60,697 nucleotides of DNA, filler included, from Porpidia crustulata (GCA_964255105.1; 8 parts of 8 records of this genome joined end to end with filler, not necessarily neighbours in it); one strand, 5' to 3'. Shown: positions 1 to 15,680, numbered from the whole stretch's first letter. Notes: generated from the letters alone by a model not told the origin. Made by a program: numbers and translations.

Positions 1-664
1 GGTTTGGGATTCGAGATGCTGATGTTCAGGGGTGCAAACTTCGGGCATCAGGATAGTCGGGTCAGCGTCATCTTCAATTCGGCATCTGCGAAGACTTGGA
101 TATTATTCGTTGAGAGCGTGAGGCCTTGATATGAGAATGTGGAGAAGAGGATGAAGATTTGATGATGGGAATTTTTTTGCGGATGTAGGGATTCTCGTTT
201 GTGAGAATAGATGTAGGTTTGTAATGGTAAATGAAAAGATCCGGCCTTTTGAGGAATAGTGGGCGAAGAGAGGATGATCTATGAGGATGTGTGAAGTTTG
301 CTCGGTTTATCACCTTTCTTATTACTCGACAAGCTCCAGTCTTGGGGGGAAAGAGACAGCTAGCGCCTTTCAACCCATTTTCTGGACTTGCAAGATAATT
401 TGATGGTATCTTGTAATGAATCCGGGATGTATGTTCATTAGACATTCAAACTATGGCGCGTCTTTCGTCATGCCACGATGAACTCGATATCATGTTATCC
501 CAATCCGAATATGTCCTTTGATTCTATCTACCCGCTAAACCGAACACAAACATATATATCTCCAGATATCAGCACGCTCGCTGACGCGCTTTTACCCCAG
601 GTCGTAGCCTCGTCATCGTAATCTCGTTTGCTATAGACAGATCCTCAGCAACCCTTTCCGTCGC

Positions 665-3466
665 TTACTCATACAGATCCATATCTCCCGCGCCGTCCTC
701 CAGAGCCAACAGTGCTTCCTGCTCGTCCTCTTCGTCGACCATATCCTCGTCTCCGCTCTCCCTATCCTCGTCGTTGTGGTTCGGAAGGACTGCGATCCTC
801 CCGTCATCCATCACCACCCTGGCTATTTCCCCGTCCTTGATGCTGCCCCTCAGGATCAGCACGGCGAGTCGGTTCAGCACTTCCTTCTCGATCAATCGAG
901 CCAGGGGCCGCGCGCCGTATGCGGGCGAGTAGCCGGCGCTGCCGAGGTAGTCTTTGACGTCATCGGAGCAGTAAATTTTTACTTTCCTATCGTTTGCTTT
1001 CAAACGTTTCTGGATCTCCTCGAGGCGGACATCGACAATCTTGCGTATTTCGCGGCGCGTAAGCCGGTTGAAGATGACGATGCTCGAGATACGGTTGAGG
1101 AATTCGGGAAGGAAGTAGTTGCGTAGGCTTGTCATGACCATTTCTCTTGTTGTAGGGTCGATCTTGCCATCGGGGGCGTTCTGACGAGCAAGGTACTCGG
1201 CACCGAGATTAGAAGTCATCACGACGATGCAATTGCGGGCATCGACGATGCGGCCTTGACCGTCGGTGATGCGGCCGTCATCCATGAGCTGGAGCATCAC
1301 AGTAAGGACCTCTTTGGCGGCTTTTTCAACTTCATCGAAGAGAAGGATGGAGAAGGGGCGACGACGGAGTGCCTCCGTGAGCTGACCGCCAGCATCGTGG
1401 CCGACGTAGCCAGGAGGTGCGCCAATCATCCGGCTGAGAGAGTGACGCTCTTGATATTCCGACATGTCGAAGCGGATCATGGCTTTTGCGTCGTCAAACA
1501 GGAATTCGGCTAGAGCTTTCGTCAACAAGGTTTTTCCCGTGCCAGAAGGACCGCAAAAGAGGAAGCTAGGTGGTTGATTCGGATTACTGAGACCAGATCG
1601 TTGTAGCCGAATCGCGTTTGAGACAGATGTGACAGCCTCCTTTTGACCTACGACGATCTTGCCTAGGACCTTTTCCATCTGGAGCAGTTTGTCTTTCTCA
1701 GAGGCCTTTAGTCTTGTGATCGGAATTCCTGTCCATCTGGAGACGATGTCTTGGATCTGCTCTGGTCCCACGGAGTCAGTCAACATAGCTTCTTTATCCC
1801 CTCCGCTGCGAGCGTACAGCTCAGCGTCCGCCCTTGCTCGATCTGCCTCGAGCCTGTCAATTCGAGCTTTAGTGTCCGGCATGGCGTAGTAGAGGAGATC
1901 CGAAGCAGTCGTAATGTCTTTATTTCGCTCTGCTTCCTCTTGCTTCACTTTGAGTTGGTCGTATTTGATCTTCGCCTCCTGGATGTCTTTACTTCGTTGC
2001 TTCTCACTCTCGTACTTTTCGCGCAGAGGTTTGAGATCCTCCTCAATGTTGGCAGCTTCGGTTCGTGCTTCCCCTAGCCTGATACGAGCTGCGTCATCTT
2101 TTTCACGCTCGAGTGCATGAATTTCGATTTGCAATTGACGCAACTTGCGCTCCATATTGTCAAGAATTTCTGGCTGGGATTCGCGGGTGACACGGACCGC
2201 GGCGGCAGCTTCATCGATCAGGTCCACGGCAGAATCGGGCAATCGTCGGGCTGTAAGATAGCGAGCGGCTAGAGTGGCCGCTGCAATTATAGCACCATCT
2301 AGAATATTGACGCCGTGGTGAACTTCATATTTCTCTTTCAACCCACGAAGGATGGACACTGTTTCTGGAATGCTTGGCTCTTTGACCAAGACCTGTTGGA
2401 ATCTTCGTTCAAACGCTTGATCCTTCTCAATGTACTTCCGGTACTCGGCGAGAGTTGTGGCACCAATGCAATGCAACTGGCCTCTCGCGAGCATGGGCTT
2501 CAGTAGATTAGCAGCATCCATGCCGCCTTCTCCACTTGAGCCAGCGCCCATCAGCAAGTGTATCTCGTCCACGAAGAGAACAATCATTTCCTTTGATTCT
2601 TCAATCTCTTTCAAAACACCCTTCATTCGCTCCTCGAATTCTCCCCGATATTTGCTCCCAGCCACCAGCGATCCAACATCAAGCGATAACAGTTTACATG
2701 CGGCAAGGTTAGCTGGTACATCGGCATTGACTATCCGTGATGCTAAGCCTTCTACCACGGTGGTCTTTCCCACACCAGGCTCTCCGATCAACACAGGGTT
2801 GTTCTTTGTTCTCCGAGACAGAATCCGTATAACTCGTCGGATTTCTTCTTCCCGACCAATGACTGGATCGATTTTGCCCTCTCTTGCCAGCGAAGTCATA
2901 TCGATAGTAAACTTCTTCAAGTTCTCGTTCTCCTGTTCGGAATCGGCCGTTTTGGTATCCACGCGCTTTGTCCCTCGAATTTGTTGTATCGCGCTGTCTA
3001 TTAATTTAGTGTTGGGGATGTTCGCTTCCGCCAGACATCTCTGTATCGAAGGATCCTGAGCCAATGCGGTGATCAGATGATCTATAGCAATGAAACTATC
3101 TTTCTGTATTTTTTGAAGTTCGCTAGCGGCGCGGAGGACCTTGGAGAACTGTGGTGATATGGAAACATTTTCTGGAGGTGGGTCTTGACTCGGCAGTCTC
3201 ACAAGGGCTTTCTTCATAGCACGATCGAGCATCTGAGGATCGCCATGGGCGCGCTCAACGACTTGCTTAAAGAGCGGGGCAGACGATCCAGAGTGTGAGG
3301 CATTCATGGTCTGTTGTTGATCTTTTGACTCGTCTATTGGTGGGTCGAGGAGCGACACGGCCAGATGTAGAGGTAGGATTTGAGAATGTGAGTATTGCTG
3401 TGCGAGTTCATGGGCGTCAGCGAGAGCCTTCTGCCCTCTGTCGGTGAACTGCATGCCTGAAGTCAT
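665..3466 (-). CDS. HSP104: Hsp104/ClpB AAA+ disaggregase (intronless, 933 aa)
   Basis: N-terminal Clp repeat region, NBD1 Walker A GEPGVGKT, middle coiled coil, NBD2 GPSGTGKT, RFDMSEYQERH and GARPL motifs, acidic C-terminal tail; no mitochondrial presequence evident. Confidence 0.97.
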   Translation of the reverse strand: MTSGMQFTDRGQKALADAHELAQQYSHSQILPLHLAVSLLDPPIDESKDQQQTMNASHSGSSAPLFKQVVERAHGDPQMLDRAMKKALVRLPSQDPPPENVSISPQFSKVLRAASELQKIQKDSFIAIDHLITALAQDPSIQRCLAEANIPNTKLIDSAIQQIRGTKRVDTKTADSEQENENLKKFTIDMTSLAREGKIDPVIGREEEIRRVIRILSRRTKNNPVLIGEPGVGKTTVVEGLASRIVNADVPANLAACKLLSLDVGSLVAGSKYRGEFEERMKGVLKEIEESKEMIVLFVDEIHLLMGAGSSGEGGMDAANLLKPMLARGQLHCIGATTLAEYRKYIEKDQAFERRFQQVLVKEPSIPETVSILRGLKEKYEVHHGVNILDGAIIAAATLAARYLTARRLPDSAVDLIDEAAAAVRVTRESQPEILDNMERKLRQLQIEIHALEREKDDAARIRLGEARTEAANIEEDLKPLREKYESEKQRSKDIQEAKIKYDQLKVKQEEAERNKDITTASDLLYYAMPDTKARIDRLEADRARADAELYARSGGDKEAMLTDSVGPEQIQDIVSRWTGIPITRLKASEKDKLLQMEKVLGKIVVGQKEAVTSVSNAIRLQRSGLSNPNQPPSFLFCGPSGTGKTLLTKALAEFLFDDAKAMIRFDMSEYQERHSLSRMIGAPPGYVGHDAGGQLTEALRRRPFSILLFDEVEKAAKEVLTVMLQLMDDGRITDGQGRIVDARNCIVVMTSNLGAEYLARQNAPDGKIDPTTREMVMTSLRNYFLPEFLNRISSIVIFNRLTRREIRKIVDVRLEEIQKRLKANDRKVKIYCSDDVKDYLGSAGYSPAYGARPLARLIEKEVLNRLAVLILRGSIKDGEIARVVMDDGRIAVLPNHNDEDRESGDEDMVDEEDEQEALLALEDGAGDMDLYE

Positions 3467-3700
3467 GTTGGCGTCTGTGTACTTGACTGTACCTCACAAA
3501 GAATTCGATGAGTGAGGGAAGCGGCTAATAGTATTTATTATATCAAATGGGGGAACGTCCTGGTTGTTTAGAGAATGTTTAGGACTCTTTCTTTAAGAAA
3601 TGTCCAAGATTCCTAATGGCAAGGCGAGGAATACTAACAGGTATCCAATTTCTTCCAGTAGGAGTCCTACGGATTGAGGTACGAATGCAATTCAAAGTCA

Positions 3701-3735
3701 CTTCTAGCTGCTTCATCTGCTTTCTGGGCCTTTCT
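3701..3735. promoter_or_regulatory. Putative step-type heat shock element upstream of HSP104
   Basis: TTC at 3702, 3712, 3722 and 3732 (exact 10-bp period, nTTCn-N5-nTTCn), ~235-270 bp upstream of the HSP104 ATG. Confidence 0.5.
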
Positions 3736-4044
3736 TCGGGGTTTCGGGACTGCCAGCAAATATTTGTAGGGCTGAGCCCTACCCCCGCGTCATACTCGGA
3801 GTTAATTTATTTCTAGCATAACCAACCTAAGCGCGTAGCTATCTATATCAAACGCAATATGCTCGCATTTCATCTTCTTGCAGTAGATGTGGATACGTTC
3901 GATGACTTGATCCCGAATACCTCTCACATATCAGATGCCGCCTGCTAATCTATACAATGCATCGCCTACTAATATCAAATCTTTTCCCACGAATGCTGAT
4001 CCTTCAGTATGTCCCTATATACATATATATCTTTGAGGATAGAT

Positions 4045-7511: not shown

Positions 7512-7611
7512 NNNNNNNNNNNNNNNNNNNNNNNNNNNNNNNNNNNNNNNNNNNNTTAATTAATTAANNNNNNNNNNNNNNNNNNNNNNNNNNNNNNNNN
7601 NNNNNNNNNNN
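7512..7611. other. Artificial contig linker N44-TTAATTAATTAA-N44
   Basis: Identical 100-bp spacer with stops in all six frames; repeats at 15122-15221, 22722-22821, 30319-30418, 37915-38014, 45511-45610 and 53105-53204. Confidence 0.99.
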
Positions 7612-8070
7612 TCTCTGACTTCCGCCGCTCCGAATTCAAAGCCCATGGATAGGTTGAAAGGAAGCAATAACAGGATTTCAAGCAGTGCTCGACCTTCGCC
7701 TTCACTTCCGCCTTCACTTCCGCCTTCGAATTTAGCAATTCCTCCCTCTTCAGCACCTTCAGTAACAACAAGAGCGGAGCGGGCGGTGAAGGAAAAGACC
7801 AAATGAAAACCGACGCCGACGTCAGCGTCAGTGACCCGGCGAGCTCGTGATTCCGCTTTAGAGGCTGCTCCTCAGCCTACTAGGAAGAGGTCTAAAAATA
7901 ACCTCGTTGGCGCCGATAGTGTGGAGGAAAGGGAATAACAGCAGCAAGGGTTACTGAATTCACCGTTTATAATTAATGATGGTACCTATATTTAGGTAGT
8001 GACGCCACCTAAAATAATGTACCCCGCCTACTGTGCGCTAGCATGTGTGCGCTCACTTGGTGCGCTCCCC
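7612..8070 (+). mobile_element. Probable degenerate DNA-transposon 3' end (Mutator-like?)
   Basis: Frame from 7612 is interrupted by TGA (7804) and TAA (7936), consistent with TGG->TGA and CAA->TAA changes; basic TRAERAVK tail; terminal segment has GTGCGCT x3 (8033, 8047, 8060) ending in CCC; lies at a contig edge. Confidence 0.4.
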
Positions 8071-8396
8071 GGACTTCCCGTCGCAATTGAGGCTCTTGTA
8101 AGTAACAATCCACCACGATAATCTAGTCTGTCTAGGAAATTCTGTGCATTTACCTACGGTACTTTGAGTTACGCGTGACCGTCCGAGCCCTGAAACGGAA
8201 ACGCCTAGCAGTCGGTCAACAGAAGAAATATAGGTAGCCATTTACAGTAACTCGGCATCCATTTCACAGCCAAAAACTAAACCCTTTACAGCAATACGCT
8301 AAGGATGTTCGCTGTTCGGTTCCTTAGACCCTGTTCGTGAAGGAAAACCCTTCCACTTCGTCCCTCGTTTCAGAGCACAAGGCCTGTGATTCATTG

Positions 8397-8877
8397 ATGA
8401 TGGTAGGTGTTTTCAGAAGCAAGCAGAAATTCGTGGACTGATACATCGAGGCGGTCTATAGGAAAGTCCCCATGACCAGCAGCAATGCTTGCTCCTGTCG
8501 CGCATCGTTACCAACGTTGTAAGTTCTCTTATCGTAAAAAGCATTTGATGGAGCCTTATATCTAAATTGATCATTGACAGGAAAAGCTGAACGAAGCTGT
8601 AGTGGCACTCAACAAAAGTCTTCAAGTCTGTCTCTGGAAACATGCTTTTGGATAGGCGTGAGTCTGCCGCTAATGCAGGTACCTAATGACTAGGAGATCA
8701 ATATCCAAAATATGAACGTCGAGCTTGTGGCTCAAATGTTTAAGAATTATCAGTCCAACATCCTCTTCCACCTTGAAGGTCAGCCGTTCATCTTGACTCA
8801 GGTTGATTATGGGGATTAGGCGCTAACAGCGTTCTGCAACATTTCTAGCAACTGACAGTCTGCAAATACCATCTTGA
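8397..8877 (+). CDS. DAD4: DASH/Dam1 complex subunit Dad4 (5 exons, ~73 aa)
   Basis: Exons 8397-8402, 8462-8518, 8581-8625, 8694-8778, 8849-8877, all GT-AG. Splices to (M)[72 protein letters not shown], matching the fungal Dad4 pattern. Confidence 0.93.
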
Positions 8878-9199
8878 ATTAGATACGCAAAGTAGTTCTT
8901 TCGAGCTATTGTTAGGGGAGCTAGTGGAGTTCGATGATGGCTACGATTGTGATGAAAGTGCTATCTTAATTGGCTATAGAGCTTAAGCCAACTGCATGTC
9001 TAGATTTACTCGTACCTAGATAATTGACACCTGATATTCTAAAACATTGTCCTAAAATCCGAGCCAAATCAAATCGGCAAATATTTCCTTGCCCCCGAAA
9101 TCCTCGCCAGTAGAGAGTTCTGAATGATAGTGCAATCGCTAAGGGTCGGATTCGTACAGTCCATCCACCAGCTTGGATAGGATATCAGAAGGCCACAGA

Positions 9200-11694
9200 A
9201 TGACCATCAACTCCGTACGATACCTAGACACGGTAGACTCGGTCAAATGTCAAAACGAAATACATGAAGCAAAGCTGCCCTTACGGATTTGGCACGCTAT
9301 TGAGCCTCCATTTAAGGGGAAACAGCCTGCTCCAGCAGAAGGCTACAAACGGAGTACAAATGAGACTGTCATTGTAATCGACAACGGTATGTGCAACAAT
9401 GAATAGCACTGTAAGACCGCATCTCATGCTCATGAAATTGCTAGGCGCTAGTCTCATCCGGGCTGGCTGGTCTTTCGACGAAGCCCCCAGATTATCATTT
9501 CCAGCCAACGTAGCCCGTTATAGAGACCGAAAGCTGAATAGAACATGCTCTTATGTTGGATATGATGCCTATGCCGATGCAACAACACGAGGCCAAATAC
9601 GAAATGCTTTCGAGCCAGGAAGCAATATTATTGCCAATTGGGATGTTATGGAAGGGGTGCTGGATTACACATTCGTCAATCTTGGCGTCACTGGTGTGGA
9701 CGGAGGTATAGGCAGACCGGTACTTATGACTGAAGCTGTTGCAAATCTGGGATATTCACGGAAAAGTTGGTGTTTTTACAGGAAGCAGAGAATGCACAAT
9801 GCTAATTACAAACAGCCATGACCGAACTACTGTTTGAGTGCTACTCTGCACCTTCGTTGGCTTATGGTATTGACTCGCTATTTTCTTACAGATACAATAA
9901 AGGAAGCAACGGGCTTATCATATCTTCTTCTTACACTTCTACCCACTTAATTCCTGTTGTGGACTCGAAGGCTATCCTCTCTAGTACTACTCGACTCAAT
10001 TGGGGGGGCTACCAAGGTGCAGATTATCTGCTCAAGCTACTGAGACTAAAGTATCCCAACTTTCCAGGAAAGATTACGGATTACCAAGCCGAGGAAATGG
10101 CCCGTGAACATTGTCACGTATCAGAACACTATGACACAGACCTCACAAAGTACCTGGACTGGACTGGACTGGAAGACAGAGATCACATAATACAGTACCC
10201 CTTCACCGAGCAGGCCGTAATCGAAAAGACAGACGAAGAAATAGCTCGAATAGTTGAACGGAAGCGGGAAGGTGGTCGACGACTTCAAGAACAGGCCGCG
10301 AAGATGAGACTAGAGAAATTAGTGAGAAAGGAGCAAGAGTTGGAATATTTCAAAGATCTTCAGCAGCGCTTACAATTCCAGACCAAGAAGGAGCAAAAGC
10401 GCTTGCTAGACGAGGATGAGTTTAAGGATGAGTCTCAATTAGAAAAGACGATCAAAGAGCTTGAGAAGTCTGTTCGTAAGGCAAGGAACAAAGATGTCGG
10501 TGGCACAGAGAACCCCGAGGAGGAGGAAGCGCAAACTTTCCCAATGTTGGACATACCAGACGAACAGCTAGACGAAGCAGGCCTTAGGCAAAAAAGGCAT
10601 CAGCGCTTGATGAAATCGAATGTTGATGCTCGAGCAAGAGCTAAAGTTGAGAAAGCTCAAGAGCAGGCTCGAGCTGCGGAAGAAGGACGACTTGACGACG
10701 AGCGGCGTGCAAATGACCTCGTAGGTTGGTTAAATGGTCGGAGGGCAGCTAGATCGGTGAGTGTCTTACGACCTGCACAATCATTGAGCCGTTCGATAGA
10801 CTGAACGTTACGAAAGGCTTTACTGCAGAAAATTAAGGACCGAGATCGGCTAAAAGCAGACTTGGGAAACCGTAAATCACTGGCCAGTCAGATTCGGATG
10901 AAGACACTAGCAAATCTGGCGTCGGACGCGCCGGGCAAAAAACGACGCCGTGGTGGCGACGATGACAATTTCGGCGCTAATGATGAGGACTGGGGAGTCT
11001 ATCGTACCGTCGTTATTGGCGATCAAAGTGATGAGGATGAAGAGGAAGATCTTGGTGCAGGGCTTAAAAGTGTAGAAGCGCAGTTGTTGAAATACGACCC
11101 TAGCTTCACCGAGGCGAGCACCATGGATGCAAAATCGAACTGGTCAAAGAGCCTTATTCATGCATTCCTCCGTGGTCCCCGACCTTTTGATGGTGAAAGC
11201 CAGCAAGAAATTCATCAAATACATCTGAACGTGGAGAGGATACGCGTACCTGAGGTTATATTTCAGCCAGCAATTGCCGGCCTTGACCAGGCCGGTATAG
11301 TCGAGATGGTGGCTGACATAATGAATCATGGCCTGACCCAAGTTGAGAATCGTAACAACTTGATGAAAGACGTATTCCTCACTGGCGGAAATACTTCGTT
11401 TACTGGTTTTGATGAGCGCTTACGTAGAGAGTTGCGAGGGGTGCTTCCTGATAGAGCTGATATTGGCATTCGTCGGGCTAAAGATCCTCTACTCGACGCT
11501 TGGAAGGGTGCTGCCCAATGGTCAAGGAAGCCTGACTTCAAGAATAGTTTATTGACCATGGACGAGTATCAAGAGAAGGGTGCGGACTATATCAAGGTGA
11601 GTGAATTGAAGCGATAGCTGCAATTGGCTTCTTCAAGACTAATACAGGATGGTAGGATCACGACCTCGGGAATATTACAAACATTCCTAGCTAA
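9200..11694 (+). CDS. ARP5: Actin-related protein 5 (INO80 complex), 5 exons
   Basis: Introns 9387-9444, 9766-9815, 10757-10816, 11597-11655; actin-fold motifs IVIDNG, VLMTEA, ERIRVPEVIFQP, VFLTGG, DAWKGAA; Arp5-type charged insertion (RKREGGRRLQEQAAKMRLEKL). Confidence 0.95.
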
Positions 11695-12442
11695 GGCACA
11701 CAATGTATCCGAATATACGTCCGCAGGATACCGATGCAACTTCAATAGCCAAAGCATTCGTATTCCCTACCAGGTACATCCAAGCGAAAGTCAAACTACG
11801 AATACGCCTCATCGATGTTAGCAGCAGACAACATGGTTGTGATGCGGCATAGCCGCGAACGCCACCGTCAGTCAAGACTTACGAGGTTAAGGCCGCGAGC
11901 GAGGGTAGACAGCCGTAAGTCTGAGTGCAAAAAAAACCTGACTCGCAGCTGGTAGCTTCACTGTGAGTGTTGGCTAGTCTGATCAGTGGAAGTCTTTCTC
12001 AAAGTGTCATGAAAGGTCTGCTATGTGTTGGAGATCTGCAAGGACTTCGATCATGCTATCAGGTACTGTAGTATGGACTAAGCTTAAAATGTAGCCCAGG
12101 CTCTCAGAGTAGAGCTGAGCATATTTCCCAAGAACGCAAGAAGAGGTTGAAGTTTGACCAAGGGATCCTTCAACGCCATGCCGTTATCGTAAACTTAAGG
12201 AGCATGCAACATTCGCTCAAGTGGAAGCACAGGATCAGGACGAACTCCGATATCACCGACCTGCTCCTAGAATACTCCGTATATGGTTATGATGCTGGAC
12301 TAGACAAACCTCTAGCAATAGGAAGAAATATCCTCGCTATACGACCTATTCTGCTCATTGACCTGAGCAACTTCTGATATTCAGAGTAAAGATGCGCAAA
12401 ATAAGCCAACCACGGCGAAATGACTCGCAGGCTTGCACACCT

Positions 12443-13469
12443 TCAGGTAGCAATAGATCGATTGTTAGGGTCAGCATTAGGTGCTCCGATCTGAGAACCT
12501 ATATTGGTTCGCAAATCTGCCGATTCGTTCATCCTGGATCGTTTCATAGGGGTATTACCGGTCATGTAGGGACCATCCTCGTGTTGGTGTTTCTTGCCAC
12601 CTAGATCAGCGACAGCCTGAGCGGCAGAAGCTTGCAATTGGCTCACAGCGGACGAACCCATTGGAGCAGTAGGCGCTGGGACGTGTTGAATGGGACCTGA
12701 AGACCGTGGATTTGGGAGCTCAATATTCGATGGCGGTTGCGGATAATCGCCCTGAGATTCTATAAGACGAGACTGGAGACTGATTATGTAGTCCCGTAGT
12801 TGATAATTCTCCGCCTGGAGTGATTTATAGCTTTGGTCGAGTTGGTTGTAATCTTTGACCTGGGCCTCTAGTTGCTTAATGTGCCCTTCTTTCCTCTGCC
12901 TGAAAGCCCGCTATGAAGATGTTAGTAATTAATTTGTCACCCAATTTCGCCAAATTACAATTTTGTCGGAGCCTAACGAACAACAACATCCTGAATCAAA
13001 TGAATCGTCGAGCTACATACCTGAGCTGCTCTATTTTGCGCGGCGCGTTTTGAGGTTGACAATTCTCGTTTGCCACCACCCTTCTTCCCATCGCTGTTCT
13101 CATCGCCTCCACTCTCGCCTGCACTCGCACTCATCATCCCAGTTCCCGCAATGGCAGGATCAATATTATGATCGTGCGCACCATGTGGGCTTGCAGGGCC
13201 TGGAGGATGGGGATTATCGAGTTTATGAGCGGCATGAGGGTTTTGCACCTGAGCAAGCAGATGTTCACGGAGAGCTGACAAGGGACCAGATGTCAGCGCG
13301 ATATCATACTTGAACTGGATATACGAGTTCGAAGTGATTACTCACACTGGTCTGCAGCAGTTTCCTATTCCTGGTAGTCAGCGATTGCACTTCAATGACT
13401 GCTGGGATCGCAACTCACTGGTGCTGGTCGCATTGGATGCGGTGCAGGTGCTAGAGTTGGCTGCATCAT
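12443..13469 (-). CDS. kapC: bZIP transcription factor, KapC-type (4 exons)
   Basis: Exons 13469-13419, 13364-13346, 13274-13021, 12910-12443; N-terminus MMQPTLAPAPHP, NIDPAI motif, bZIP LSTSKRAAQNRAAQRAFRQRKE...LQAENYQLRDYIISLQSRLIESQG. Confidence 0.85.
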
Positions 13470-13873
13470 CAGACAGCTACACCGCGACAAACAAAGCAGG
13501 CCTTGCCAACCGCCCAAGGTCGAAGCGCCTTGATACCTTCCTGGTTTCTGGAGTTCCAAACGCTCCCCGTAGATCCGGCGCTGAGCAAGAGCTAATTGCG
13601 GTGGATAAGAAGCGATTCGAAAAACAAGGAAGCTTCTCAGTATGACACTGAGGTAGCAGCACTTAGTCTAGTATGCGCACGGCAGTTCAACGAAATATTT
13701 CCTGATTGTCGCTGCGATTCACACTCAGTGAATCCTGGCTCGTGAAGCCGAATTAGTAAGCCTGTTCAAGCTTGATTACCTGATCCCGTAGGATCCGAGA
13801 CACTATCAGGGGTTCGCGAATGTCATTGGGCCATAAGCGGCAACGACCAAAAGCACTACATCTACTCATGCAC

Positions 13874-13907
13874 ACCTCTAGTTCGGTCAGACCTCTAGTT
13901 CGGTCAC
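13874..13907. repeat. 17-bp tandem duplication
   Basis: ACCTCTAGTTCGGTCAG followed directly by ACCTCTAGTTCGGTCAC. Confidence 0.9.
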
Positions 13908-14065
13908 GTTAAGCCCTACGACTCGAACGCTGAGAATACATGTTGCGATTCACTCAGATTTGTAATGAGATCACAAGTTTTGTATAAGTTTTAAATTAAT
14001 GCAGAAACTAAAAGACTATCTGGATTTAAATTTATGCATGCACACAATACCAAAAGGTCAACACT

Positions 14066-14137
14066 GCGCTCCTCTCTACAACCTCCTCGCGCTCCTCCCT
14101 ACAACCTTCTCGCGCTCCTCCCTACAACCTTCTCGCG
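14066..14137. repeat. 23-bp tandem repeat x3
   Basis: GCGCTCCTCYCTACAACCTYCTC at 14066, 14089 and 14112. Confidence 0.9.
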
Positions 14138-14215
14138 GTGACAATTGAAGTCCTCACCACGGATGGGGCCATTATATACGCGTCTAGGTAAGGCAGAAGA
14201 CGCGTCAGCTTATCA

Positions 14216-15121
14216 TGTTAGATTCTATATCACGTCGGTTAAGAGACTCAAAGGGCTAGAACGCGTTCTTTGCAATACCCCTGATGGTTCAAGTCCATCT
14301 ATACAGTCATCGGCTGGGGGCTAGACATAGCGTTGGAAGGCCGGTTAAAAGCTACCAGAGACGAATCGTTAATACCGGCCTCAGAGACATATCATTAATA
14401 CCAGTTCTTCACCTTTTGGGGGTTCAAGTCCTTCCTTGCAGTCATTAGCTGAAAGCGGAAAGAAGTTTCTGATACGGGTACACTCTGAGCGTCGACACGA
14501 GCACACTCTGGTAAAGAAGGGATCTAAGAGATCTGAAACAGGCTGGGTCGCGCCCGGCTACAGACAGGGGAACTGGCTTATAAAAACCACCCGATCAGTG
14601 GCTACTACGTGTCGACGCCGTAGGCCGAAACTGGTCTCTACCAGTGAATGCGTTAGTCTGCTAGCTACTGAACAGGGCACCCTTGGGGATCGTGGACTAC
14701 TGTATGTAAGGAACTTGTTAATATCGATCTCTATCCCTCCTGGGAGTTCAAGTCTCTCTACACAGTCACCAGCTGGGAGCGGATTGATGGGGGTCGACAC
14801 AGGCACCACCGAACATACAGTATAGCGTTCTTTGGTTAGTAGGGTGGAAACGCTGCACCACACCGCTTGGCAAAGGGCGCGGTTGTTAGCAATCCCTGCG
14901 AGACACGGTCGGCCTGACTGAGGGAGACCTCTGACGGCAACGCGAAGCGAGGGTTTTATAACCTTGTGGGGCGTGGTGTTCAATGGCGGCCACAGTGAGA
15001 CCGTCTGTTCAGCTCAAGAGGACAGTATGCGCGTGTTGGTATACCGAGAGTCAAGAGAACAATCTACCTCTAAGAGGACCTGCGGCGGAGCAGAGAGCAA
15101 GCCAAAGTGGTATTACACCTA
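14216..15121 (+). ncRNA. Putative highly structured non-coding RNA or repeat element (truncated by contig end) with three copies of a T-loop three-way-junction motif
   Basis: 43-nt motif at 14278-14320, 14413-14455 and 14737-14779 with covarying stems; many further hairpins; no credible ORF; begins TGTTAG (LTR-like start). Confidence 0.55.
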
Positions 15122-15221
15122 NNNNNNNNNNNNNNNNNNNNNNNNNNNNNNNNNNNNNNNNNNNNTTAATTAATTAANNNNNNNNNNNNNNNNNNNNNNN
15201 NNNNNNNNNNNNNNNNNNNNN

Positions 15222-15680
15222 TGCTTCATAGCCCTAGGCTGCATAAGCACGTAAAAATGAAGTAATAAAAAAAATACTGTTCAACATTATTTAACGGGAT
15301 GTATTTTCTTATTACAGATATCGTCATTTTAAACAAATTATACATTCGAAGAAGTCGGACCGAGCACGATATGTCTGTGTTATTGGTCTGTGCAGCGATC
15401 AAGACGTTAAGAATTCATTCTTCTCGCTTATTCAGAAACGCTTTCGAAATTTAACACGCTCTAAGATTTTACATGCATACATTCACTTACACCGTTCTCA
15501 GACGTAACGATAACAGAATAAAATACGCTGAATTCTCAGATTATTTATTAAAACGTTTCGATAAACCAACAAGAAGATTCCGTTCTCCAATGAAAGGCTT
15601 TACGTATGAGGTCTATTCATGGAGATCCGCTTTATTCGTGAATCCAGGGCGTTGGGTATATTCATGACCATGGTACAATT
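15222..15680. repeat. AT-rich, possibly RIP-degraded repeat relic at contig start
   Basis: Visibly more AT-rich than the flanking genes, no credible ORF, at a contig edge. Confidence 0.3.

Follow-up and report, generated by a model that had tools for sequence, protein, structure and literature searches.

A reiterated RNA junction module with a tRNA-type T-arm, probably part of the non-coding head of a composite non-LTR retroelement in Porpidia crustulata

The locus

The DNA analyzed here, hereafter the window, is a 60,697-nucleotide stretch from Porpidia crustulata (GCA_964255105.1). It is a chain of ~7.5 kb pieces, of which neighboring ones may be non-adjacent in the genome. The joins between pieces are N runs around a 12-base linker with stops in all frames (at 7556, 15166, 22766, etc.); they occupy 7512-7612, 15123-15222, and five further sites of the window. 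The piece at 7613-15122 contains an actin-related eukaryotic gene at 9399-11617 and three 43-nt units, the last of which lies ~340 bases from the piece end, while the remaining pieces carry ordinary eukaryotic housekeeping genes. The actin-family (Arp-like) gene spans three consecutive open frames, which introns or frame changes could explain. A 17-nt direct repeat, present in 1.9 copies, is found at 13874-13906, ~160 nt upstream of the region that we call the head. The visible part of the head (14066-15122, + strand) holds all three units and is supported by its similarity to relatives, its non-coding pattern, and a rise in contig depth.

The 43-nt module

Unit architecture: All three units lie on the + strand. 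Module 1 (14278-14320) combines the closing stem CCCC/GGGG with the T-arm and the hairpin CAGU-CAUCG-GCUG. Module 2 (14413-14455) has the closing stem CUUU/AAAG and sits atop an extended imperfect stem at ~14401-14477. Module 3 (14737-14779), closed by CUCC/GGAG and carried by an extended stem at ~14724-14798, is positioned between two conserved core blocks of the head. Against the covariance model R1, described below, the three score 63.1, 67.7, and 62.1 bits, respectively. An earlier sequence-only reading had proposed these units, and re-reading the window reproduces its coordinates and sequences; the identical spacing that it also described holds inside the units but not between them (135 versus 324 nt). 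The core pattern GTTCAAGTC-N3-C-N4-CAGTCA-N3-GCTG has exactly three matches in the window, all on the + strand and with zero mismatches, against a chance expectation of 0.01, and none of 100 shuffles reached three. The R1 search revealed no further module elsewhere in the 60.7 kb window.

Three elements make up the module: a closing stem of 4 bp, a T-arm of tRNA type, and a second hairpin of 4 bp, CAGU-CAYYR-GCUG. The T-arm consists of 5 bp and the loop UUCAAGU, with a near-invariant G-C pair closing the loop, and the linkers of the three window units read UAUA, CUUG, and UACA. An H-type pseudoknot between the CAAG of the loop and the linker CUUG was considered and rejected on account of an implausible geometry and of the linker sequence, which elsewhere reads UAUA, UACA, CUCG, and others. 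Copies 1 and 3, but not copy 2, adopt the three-way junction as their minimum-free-energy fold, and the folding energies of the units are unremarkable when compared with shuffles (z of −0.79, +1.01, and −0.66 for copies 1-3). Folding energy alone would thus not pick out the units, and the support for the junction is comparative.

Module surroundings: The base following each unit, previously noted as a bulged C, is C in 22 of 33 modules but A in five and T in six; the pairing of AUCC with GGAU past this base in copy 3 is part of the minimum-free-energy structure. More generally, the module usually sits atop a longer imperfect stem, and the pairing of its flanks is specific, with an energy of −12.2 kcal/mol versus −8.4 ± 0.6 kcal/mol when the 3' flanks are swapped among modules (0 of 30 controls as low). 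The flanks include conserved words, GUUAAUAC... upstream and ...ACACRGGC downstream, which together with the modules form tandem monomers of ~116 nt in some loci (L008, L018, L017).

Relatives and covariation

The core pattern matches 22 metagenome loci, often two to four times per locus and on one strand. It has no match in viral contigs and none in the 596 billion bases of prokaryote genomes searched as a background control. Two of the 22 loci, L009 and L014, were excluded from all counts as unrelated: their pattern match lacks the closing stem and scores 26 bits over model positions 6-39 only. The flanks of these two matches (L009 1497-1530 and L014 953-986) are alike, and they probably belong to an unrelated conserved sequence. 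Duplicate loci, judged identical over the compared stretch, were counted once (L019 = L001, L007 = L002, L010 = L003, L016/L021 = L005, L015 = L006; L004 ~ L012). The covariance model R1 was built from 26 modules, and its search returned 37 modules in 14 sources, namely the window and 13 distinct loci.

Pairing is largely preserved in these homologs. In the 37 modules, standard pairs fill 96.5% of 480 pair cells, versus 84.8% with shuffled partners (0 of 500 as high) and 41-62% in slid registers. Cells changed on both sides number 84, compared to 28.5 ± 7 in shuffles; such changes affect all four closing-stem pairs and four of the five T-stem pairs, and the covariation score of the modules was equaled in 0 of 500 shuffles. 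De novo folding with RNAalifold of 15 windows of 90 nt recovered exactly the same junction. The covariation of the closing stem and of the 5-bp arm, first noticed on three copies, is confirmed over 37 modules and 14 sources. G-U or U-G wobbles occupy 73 of the 480 cells, so the structure exists only on the + strand, and the argument for + strand polarity that had been drawn from the wobbles is right. The G-U pairs and the LINE reading frames found on the same strand, described below, together fix the polarity of the module.

The 7-nt loop and the CAGT/GCTG stem, described as invariant in the window, are nearly but not strictly so across modules: the loop reads UUCAAGU in 36 of 37, and the G-C pair closing it is present in 35 of 37. 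Helix 3 and both loops were preset by the search pattern in 26 modules; they are near invariant too in the 11 modules found by the model only. The combination of two near-invariant loops and a near-invariant helix 3 with drifting helices 1 and 2 is the pattern expected of a recognition surface. Loci contain one to four modules, whose position varies among related heads while the core blocks are conserved, and the group formed by L008, L013, L017, and L018 has no module between the core blocks. This variable number and position is easier to reconcile with independent units than with a single fixed tertiary contact.

Comparison with tRNA and other structured RNAs

The T-arm signature is genuine, with a 5-bp stem, the loop UUCAAGU, and the conserved closing G-C pair. 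At the sequence level, it reproduces the T-loop consensus, a U-U-C-R-A loop closed by G-C on a 5-bp stem, and the loop fits the U54-U55-C56-R57-A58 pattern of tRNA. Every module also contains GGTTCAAGTCC or AGTTCAAGTCT, a candidate B box. By eye, no A box is present 30-60 nt upstream of the B box, where the flank GUUAAUACYGG, ~20 nt before the T-arm, does not fit.

The likeness to tRNA ends with this 5-bp stem and 7-nt loop. The module has no acceptor, D, or anticodon arm, and its T-arm is embedded in a three-way junction of mirrored topology, in which the closing helix prolongs the 5' strand of the T-stem instead of its 3' strand. In keeping with the earlier failure to match the fold to tRNA, hammerhead, twister, or HDV, ARAGORN found no tRNA gene in the window or the 13 loci, and the hammerhead, twister, and HDV models, as well as those of SRP and mascRNA, went unmatched in the same sequences. 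Rfam searches were empty at gathering score in the window and at E up to 0.1 in the 13 loci, and around the site nothing relevant appeared even with E as high as 10. A hammerhead-like CUGAUGA on the minus strand, the reverse complement of hairpin 2, was rejected, as the CAUCG variants do not preserve it and the minus strand is incompatible with the wobble pairs. Telomerase RNA was likewise discarded, since the head is multi-copy and contains neither CCCTAA nor TTAGGG.

Two classes of LINE-dependent RNAs share some features with the module and its head. Elements of the tRNA-derived SINE class have a B-box-like T-arm, LINE dependence, and a LINE-derived 3' part in common with the sequences described here, but the present head exceeds 1 kb, carries two to four modules, and has no A box and no tRNA-like body; moreover, selection acts here on pairing at the RNA level, and the LINE part can reach kilobases. 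The possibility, raised at the outset, that the motif is a tRNA-derived SINE came close in pointing to a retroelement, but the element is not a SINE by its size, it lacks an A box, and the T-arm is the sole tRNA resemblance. The Alu domain of SRP RNA arranges two small hairpins on a short helix leading into a long stem, a fold that gets a LINE hitch-hiker to the LINE enzyme. The module likewise has two small hairpins and a short closing helix followed by a long stem; unlike the Alu domain, it has no visible UGUNR turn, complementarity between its two hairpin loops is not evident, and the SRP models give no hit when E is relaxed to 10.

The non-coding head

Head extent: Heads are ~1.1-1.5 kb in length. 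The window head is cut by the piece end at 15122, and relatives suggest ~190 nt more before the terminus ...TTGGC. Its 5' limit at 14066 was set by analogy with L006, where a target-site duplication adjoins the tandem repeats. L001, L002, L005, and L006 align with it from ~14290 as far as the piece end, with 66-76% identity over up to ~800 nt. The head is non-coding: variable columns are spread evenly over the codon phases (133/133/134), and indels have lengths other than multiples of three. The open frames at 14436-14825 (+) and 14558-14983 (−) were rejected as protein-coding on the lack of a Pfam match and of codon periodicity and on frame-breaking indels.

The 5' region: The head opens with a tandem repeat of 23 nt × 3.1 at 14066-14137 (+ strand, TRF). 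Tandem repeats of 23-31 nt also open the heads of L005, L006, L008, L013, and L018 by the same program, at positions 933-993, 640-684 (reverse strand), 1-96, 1-70, and 1-61, respectively. These repeats are C/T-rich and differ in sequence between groups, with position and style in common. Between them and module 1 lies a stretch (14172-14266, + strand) with a TATATA run and three ACGCGT hexamers, located at −100, −78, and −17 from module 1. The hexamer occurs 23 times in 13.1 kb of heads versus ~3.2 expected (~7-fold), with a cluster around the first module (−140 to +65), and in the heads of L001-L018 its copies are often inverted pairs flanking a module. ACGCGT could act as a promoter element akin to the cell-cycle box; possible roles of the stretch are an internal promoter region or RNA palindromes or stems.

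The core blocks: Core block 1 (14543-14692, + strand) is a multi-helix domain kept in all relatives over 14564-14688. RNAalifold on 10 sequences gives it 46 pairs, of which 21 are changed in a compensatory way in one sequence or more. Long invariant stretches mark 14830-15122 (+ strand), a region that comprises core block 2 and the beginning of block 3 and is cut at the piece end; block 2 is conserved over ~14830-15058, with 71-78% identity even to the distant L008, L013, L017, and L018. Overall, the head is a large structured non-coding RNA domain with many covarying helices.

Fusion to LINE sequence

The 3' end of the head, ...TTGGC, is identical in all seven loci in which it is visible, and it is followed by sequence that is unrelated from locus to locus. 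In five loci, this sequence was confirmed to encode parts of a LINE, in the orientation of the head and with varying entry points. LINE pieces were mapped by BLASTP on a 1119-aa endonuclease and reverse-transcriptase protein, found via a fragment in L008 that has 46 homologs, many with RVT_1, Exo_endo_phos_2, and Exo_endo_phos domains; Pfam on the short fragments gave sub-threshold scores only, and BLASTP to the full-length relative was used instead. The piece in L005 covers residues 1-203 (Pfam Exo_endo_phos_2, 2e-12) and provides a complete start of the LINE reading frame ~335 nt past the head, while BLASTP places the pieces of L020, L018, and L002 at residues 506-578, 717-824, and 1009-1066, all on the strand of the head. 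The sequence past the terminus of L001 was not confirmed as LINE (BLASTP E of 0.44; sub-threshold RVT_3 at 0.006).

One locus displays both ends of an insertion. In L006, the tail after the head measures 755 nt, ends at a point common to L002 (A10 there), and passes into poly(A); a 13-bp direct repeat lies directly before the 5' repeat of the head and directly after the poly(A) tail. This target-site duplication and the poly(A) indicate that the whole ~1.9 kb was inserted as one piece. The tail shared with L002, together with the poly(A), also supports a LINE part in L006. A duplication was found in one of the five loci searched, most loci being too short for both ends. A 10-nt direct repeat in L020 does not adjoin the element ends and was taken as chance. 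The composite element thus appears to be a head, a variably 5'-truncated LINE, poly(A), and a target-site duplication, of which the window copy is seen only to 15122.

Contigs point to a multi-copy state. Run X1, the likely source run, contains 74% of the words of the stretch. Its contigs represent the upstream flank by one contig of depth 11.5 that breaks at 14107, and from ~14065 onward by many short variant contigs with a summed depth of 30-118; in a related run, the depth is 21.6 in the flank versus 650-3850 in the head, although summed contig depths are not copy numbers. Several distinct head variants clearly coexist in run X1. Beyond 15122, contigs of X1, X4, and X9 go on with head-like sequence; the window copy is cut inside the head by the end of its piece.

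Relation to MINE and other composite elements

The closest described architecture is MINE of Magnaporthe. According to the original paper, MINE joins a full-length, 1.1-kb non-coding and well-expressed RNA named WEIRD, of a function unknown to the authors, to copies of the LINE MGL truncated at 28 different sites, and is flanked by 10-20-bp duplications (PMC2104539). The paper reports no solo WEIRD copy and no homolog elsewhere at that time, and it proposes that MINE arose when the LINE enzyme switched templates from LINE RNA onto the WEIRD 3' end, WEIRD itself deriving from a host RNA gene (PMC2104539). MINE shares with the present elements a full-length non-coding head of ~1.1 kb fused by its 3' end to a variably 5'-truncated LINE, target-site duplications, a multi-copy state, and the lack of a solo head (PMC2104539). 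The corresponding features here are the non-coding head, the fixed 3' terminus, and the variably 5'-truncated LINE on the same strand, together with the target-site duplication and poly(A) of L006. The likeness is one of architecture; at the sequence level, WEIRD was compared through two 20-nt primers given in a later paper (PMC3978060), which have no match in any head with up to five mismatches. The literature searched describes no structure, T-loop module, or homologs for WEIRD, nor does it describe the 43-nt motif. Mammalian U6-L1 chimeras are also full-length small RNAs fused to variably truncated LINE copies, as summarized in the Magnaporthe paper (PMC2104539), but here the 5' partner is a long RNA for which no solo gene was seen.

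Interpretation

The 43-nt unit is very probably a conserved RNA module within the head of a composite non-LTR retroelement. The sequence-only reading, which had called it a selected, modular + strand RNA domain, was correct as to covariation and T-arm, but the domain is not free-standing; it is part of a retroelement head. Identity and mechanism taken jointly, the account given in this section is our best explanation overall and, on balance, somewhat more likely than not. The mechanism considered by itself, in which the modules serve as multivalent tRNA-elbow mimics that recruit a T-arm-binding factor, is put forward tentatively.

To illustrate this proposal, the steps can be laid out from transcription to insertion. 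The head RNA would be transcribed on the + strand and then copied by the LINE reverse transcriptase, which would reach the 3' end of the head RNA by template switching, as proposed for MINE; the fixed terminus of the head argues for such a discrete RNA end. At the RNA level, the modules would act as independent, multivalent mimics of the tRNA elbow, with the T-loop and the invariant second hairpin forming one recognition surface. This surface may recruit a T-arm-binding host factor or a LINE protein, candidate partners being T-loop modifying or chaperoning enzymes, the ribosomal contacts of the tRNA elbow, and the LINE protein, and the recruited factor could stabilize or position the head RNA for capture by the LINE enzyme. 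Given the T-loop signature, elbow mimicry would be the simplest reading, based on resemblance in sequence and on the way T-loops are recognized. The intact LINE start in L005 suggests a variant of this scheme, in which the head could be the natural 5' leader of a full-length LINE, released by processing, rather than a separate RNA.

The modules could instead be architectural, their T-loops docking onto receptors within the head RNA to aid its folding, with no trans-acting factor. T-loops are common tertiary modules of large RNAs such as RNase P, T-box, and rRNA, and the head is a large RNA with many covarying helices. Nevertheless, we regard this role as unlikely, since the number (two to four) and placement of modules vary while the core blocks are conserved, one group has no inter-block module, and the tandem ~116-nt monomers of L008, L018, and L017 look like reiterated independent units.

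Selection could also act on DNA, the T-arm being a B box bound by TFIIIC that serves as a Pol III internal promoter or as a boundary shielding insertions from silencing. GGTTCAAGTCC fits the B-box consensus, retroelements need an internal promoter, and the loop is the same in 36 of 37 modules even at positions that tRNA T-loops usually let vary. On the + strand of 10 heads, T runs of four or more number 11 and A runs 34, but this depletion of T runs is weak and its units are non-independent. Selection on RNA pairing is shown by covariation in the closing stem and in pairs beyond the B box, and by the 73 G-U cells. In addition, visual inspection of the upstream side gave no A-box-like motif, and the conserved 5' flank GUUAAUAC... 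does not conform to one; the distance from the head start to the first module is ~210 nt, transcripts must cross kilobases of LINE, and the ACGCGT cluster with the 5' repeats offers another candidate promoter. A B-box function at the DNA level is therefore unlikely.

A broader version of the RNA-level reading holds that the head is an autonomous structured RNA, a widespread relative or analogue of WEIRD, which would draw the LINE reverse transcriptase onto its 3' end while its modules dock on the translating ribosome or on LINE protein. Such a head would be the tRNA-mimicry counterpart of Alu and SRP9-14, conserved in many filamentous fungi; in this full form, we consider the idea doubtful.

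A host master gene would place the window locus in the role of a housekeeping non-coding RNA gene, with the LINE-fused copies as pseudogenes comparable to U6-L1. The Magnaporthe authors proposed the same for WEIRD (PMC2104539). The fixed 3' terminus implies a discrete RNA end, and the window copy could belong to such a gene insofar as its 3' end lies beyond 15122. Solo ends, however, are found in none of the seven loci with a visible end, the flanks of 95%-identical copies are unrelated, heads are mosaic (L005 and L002 share 93% in one segment and 73-75% in the next), several variant copies occur in one run, and the 5' tandem repeat adjoins a target-site duplication. All of these fit a mobile family, and we judge a master gene at the window locus improbable.

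Finally, that the modules are processing signals, either tRNA-like substrates of RNase P or RNase Z or part of a self-cleaving ribozyme defining the ends of the head RNA, is highly improbable: the T-arm resemblance and the need for some step that produces the discrete ...TTGGC terminus speak for it, but ~210 nt separate the 5' end of the head from the first module and several hundred nt separate the last module from the 3' end, the topology mirrors that of an acceptor/T minihelix, nothing in the analysis points to a ribozyme, and no ribozyme family, the small self-cleaving models included, scores on the window or the 13 loci.

Composite head and LINE retroelements have so far been described in one fungus, and their head RNA has been without known homologs, structure, or function since 2005-2007. 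Heads of the same architecture are now known from at least 13 distinct metagenomic loci plus the Porpidia crustulata genome, and their T-loop junction module, reiterated and sharply defined, is not in Rfam. The RNA motif is new, and the element adds a widespread new case to a class of composite retroelements that is known but poorly understood. With its covariance model, the 43-nt motif provides a handle on the copying of a non-coding RNA by a LINE enzyme, and R1 can serve as a marker when elements of this class are annotated in fungal genomes. Were the modules only B boxes or folding aids, they would still constitute a well-supported new structured RNA family, of narrower interest.

Variation among copies

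Copies differ by decay as well as by rearrangement. Over ~1105 nt, the heads of L006 and L020 share 95% identity, with unrelated flanks; of the 56 differences, 43 are changes of C to T or of G to A in L020. The modules of L020 have 35-40% G+C and pairs broken without compensation. This bias and the uncompensated broken pairs identify L020 as a decayed copy, and its mutation pattern resembles repeat-induced point mutation. Heads are also mosaic: in L005 (1149-1403 and 2103-2433), segments of 89-93% identity to L002 stand beside others of 73-75%, which suggests recombination or template switching between head lineages. In run X1, a contig of depth 73.9 joins 14784 to 15017, so that a head variant without 232 nt of core block 2 exists in this run, and another head variant in the same run is L001-like near 15051.
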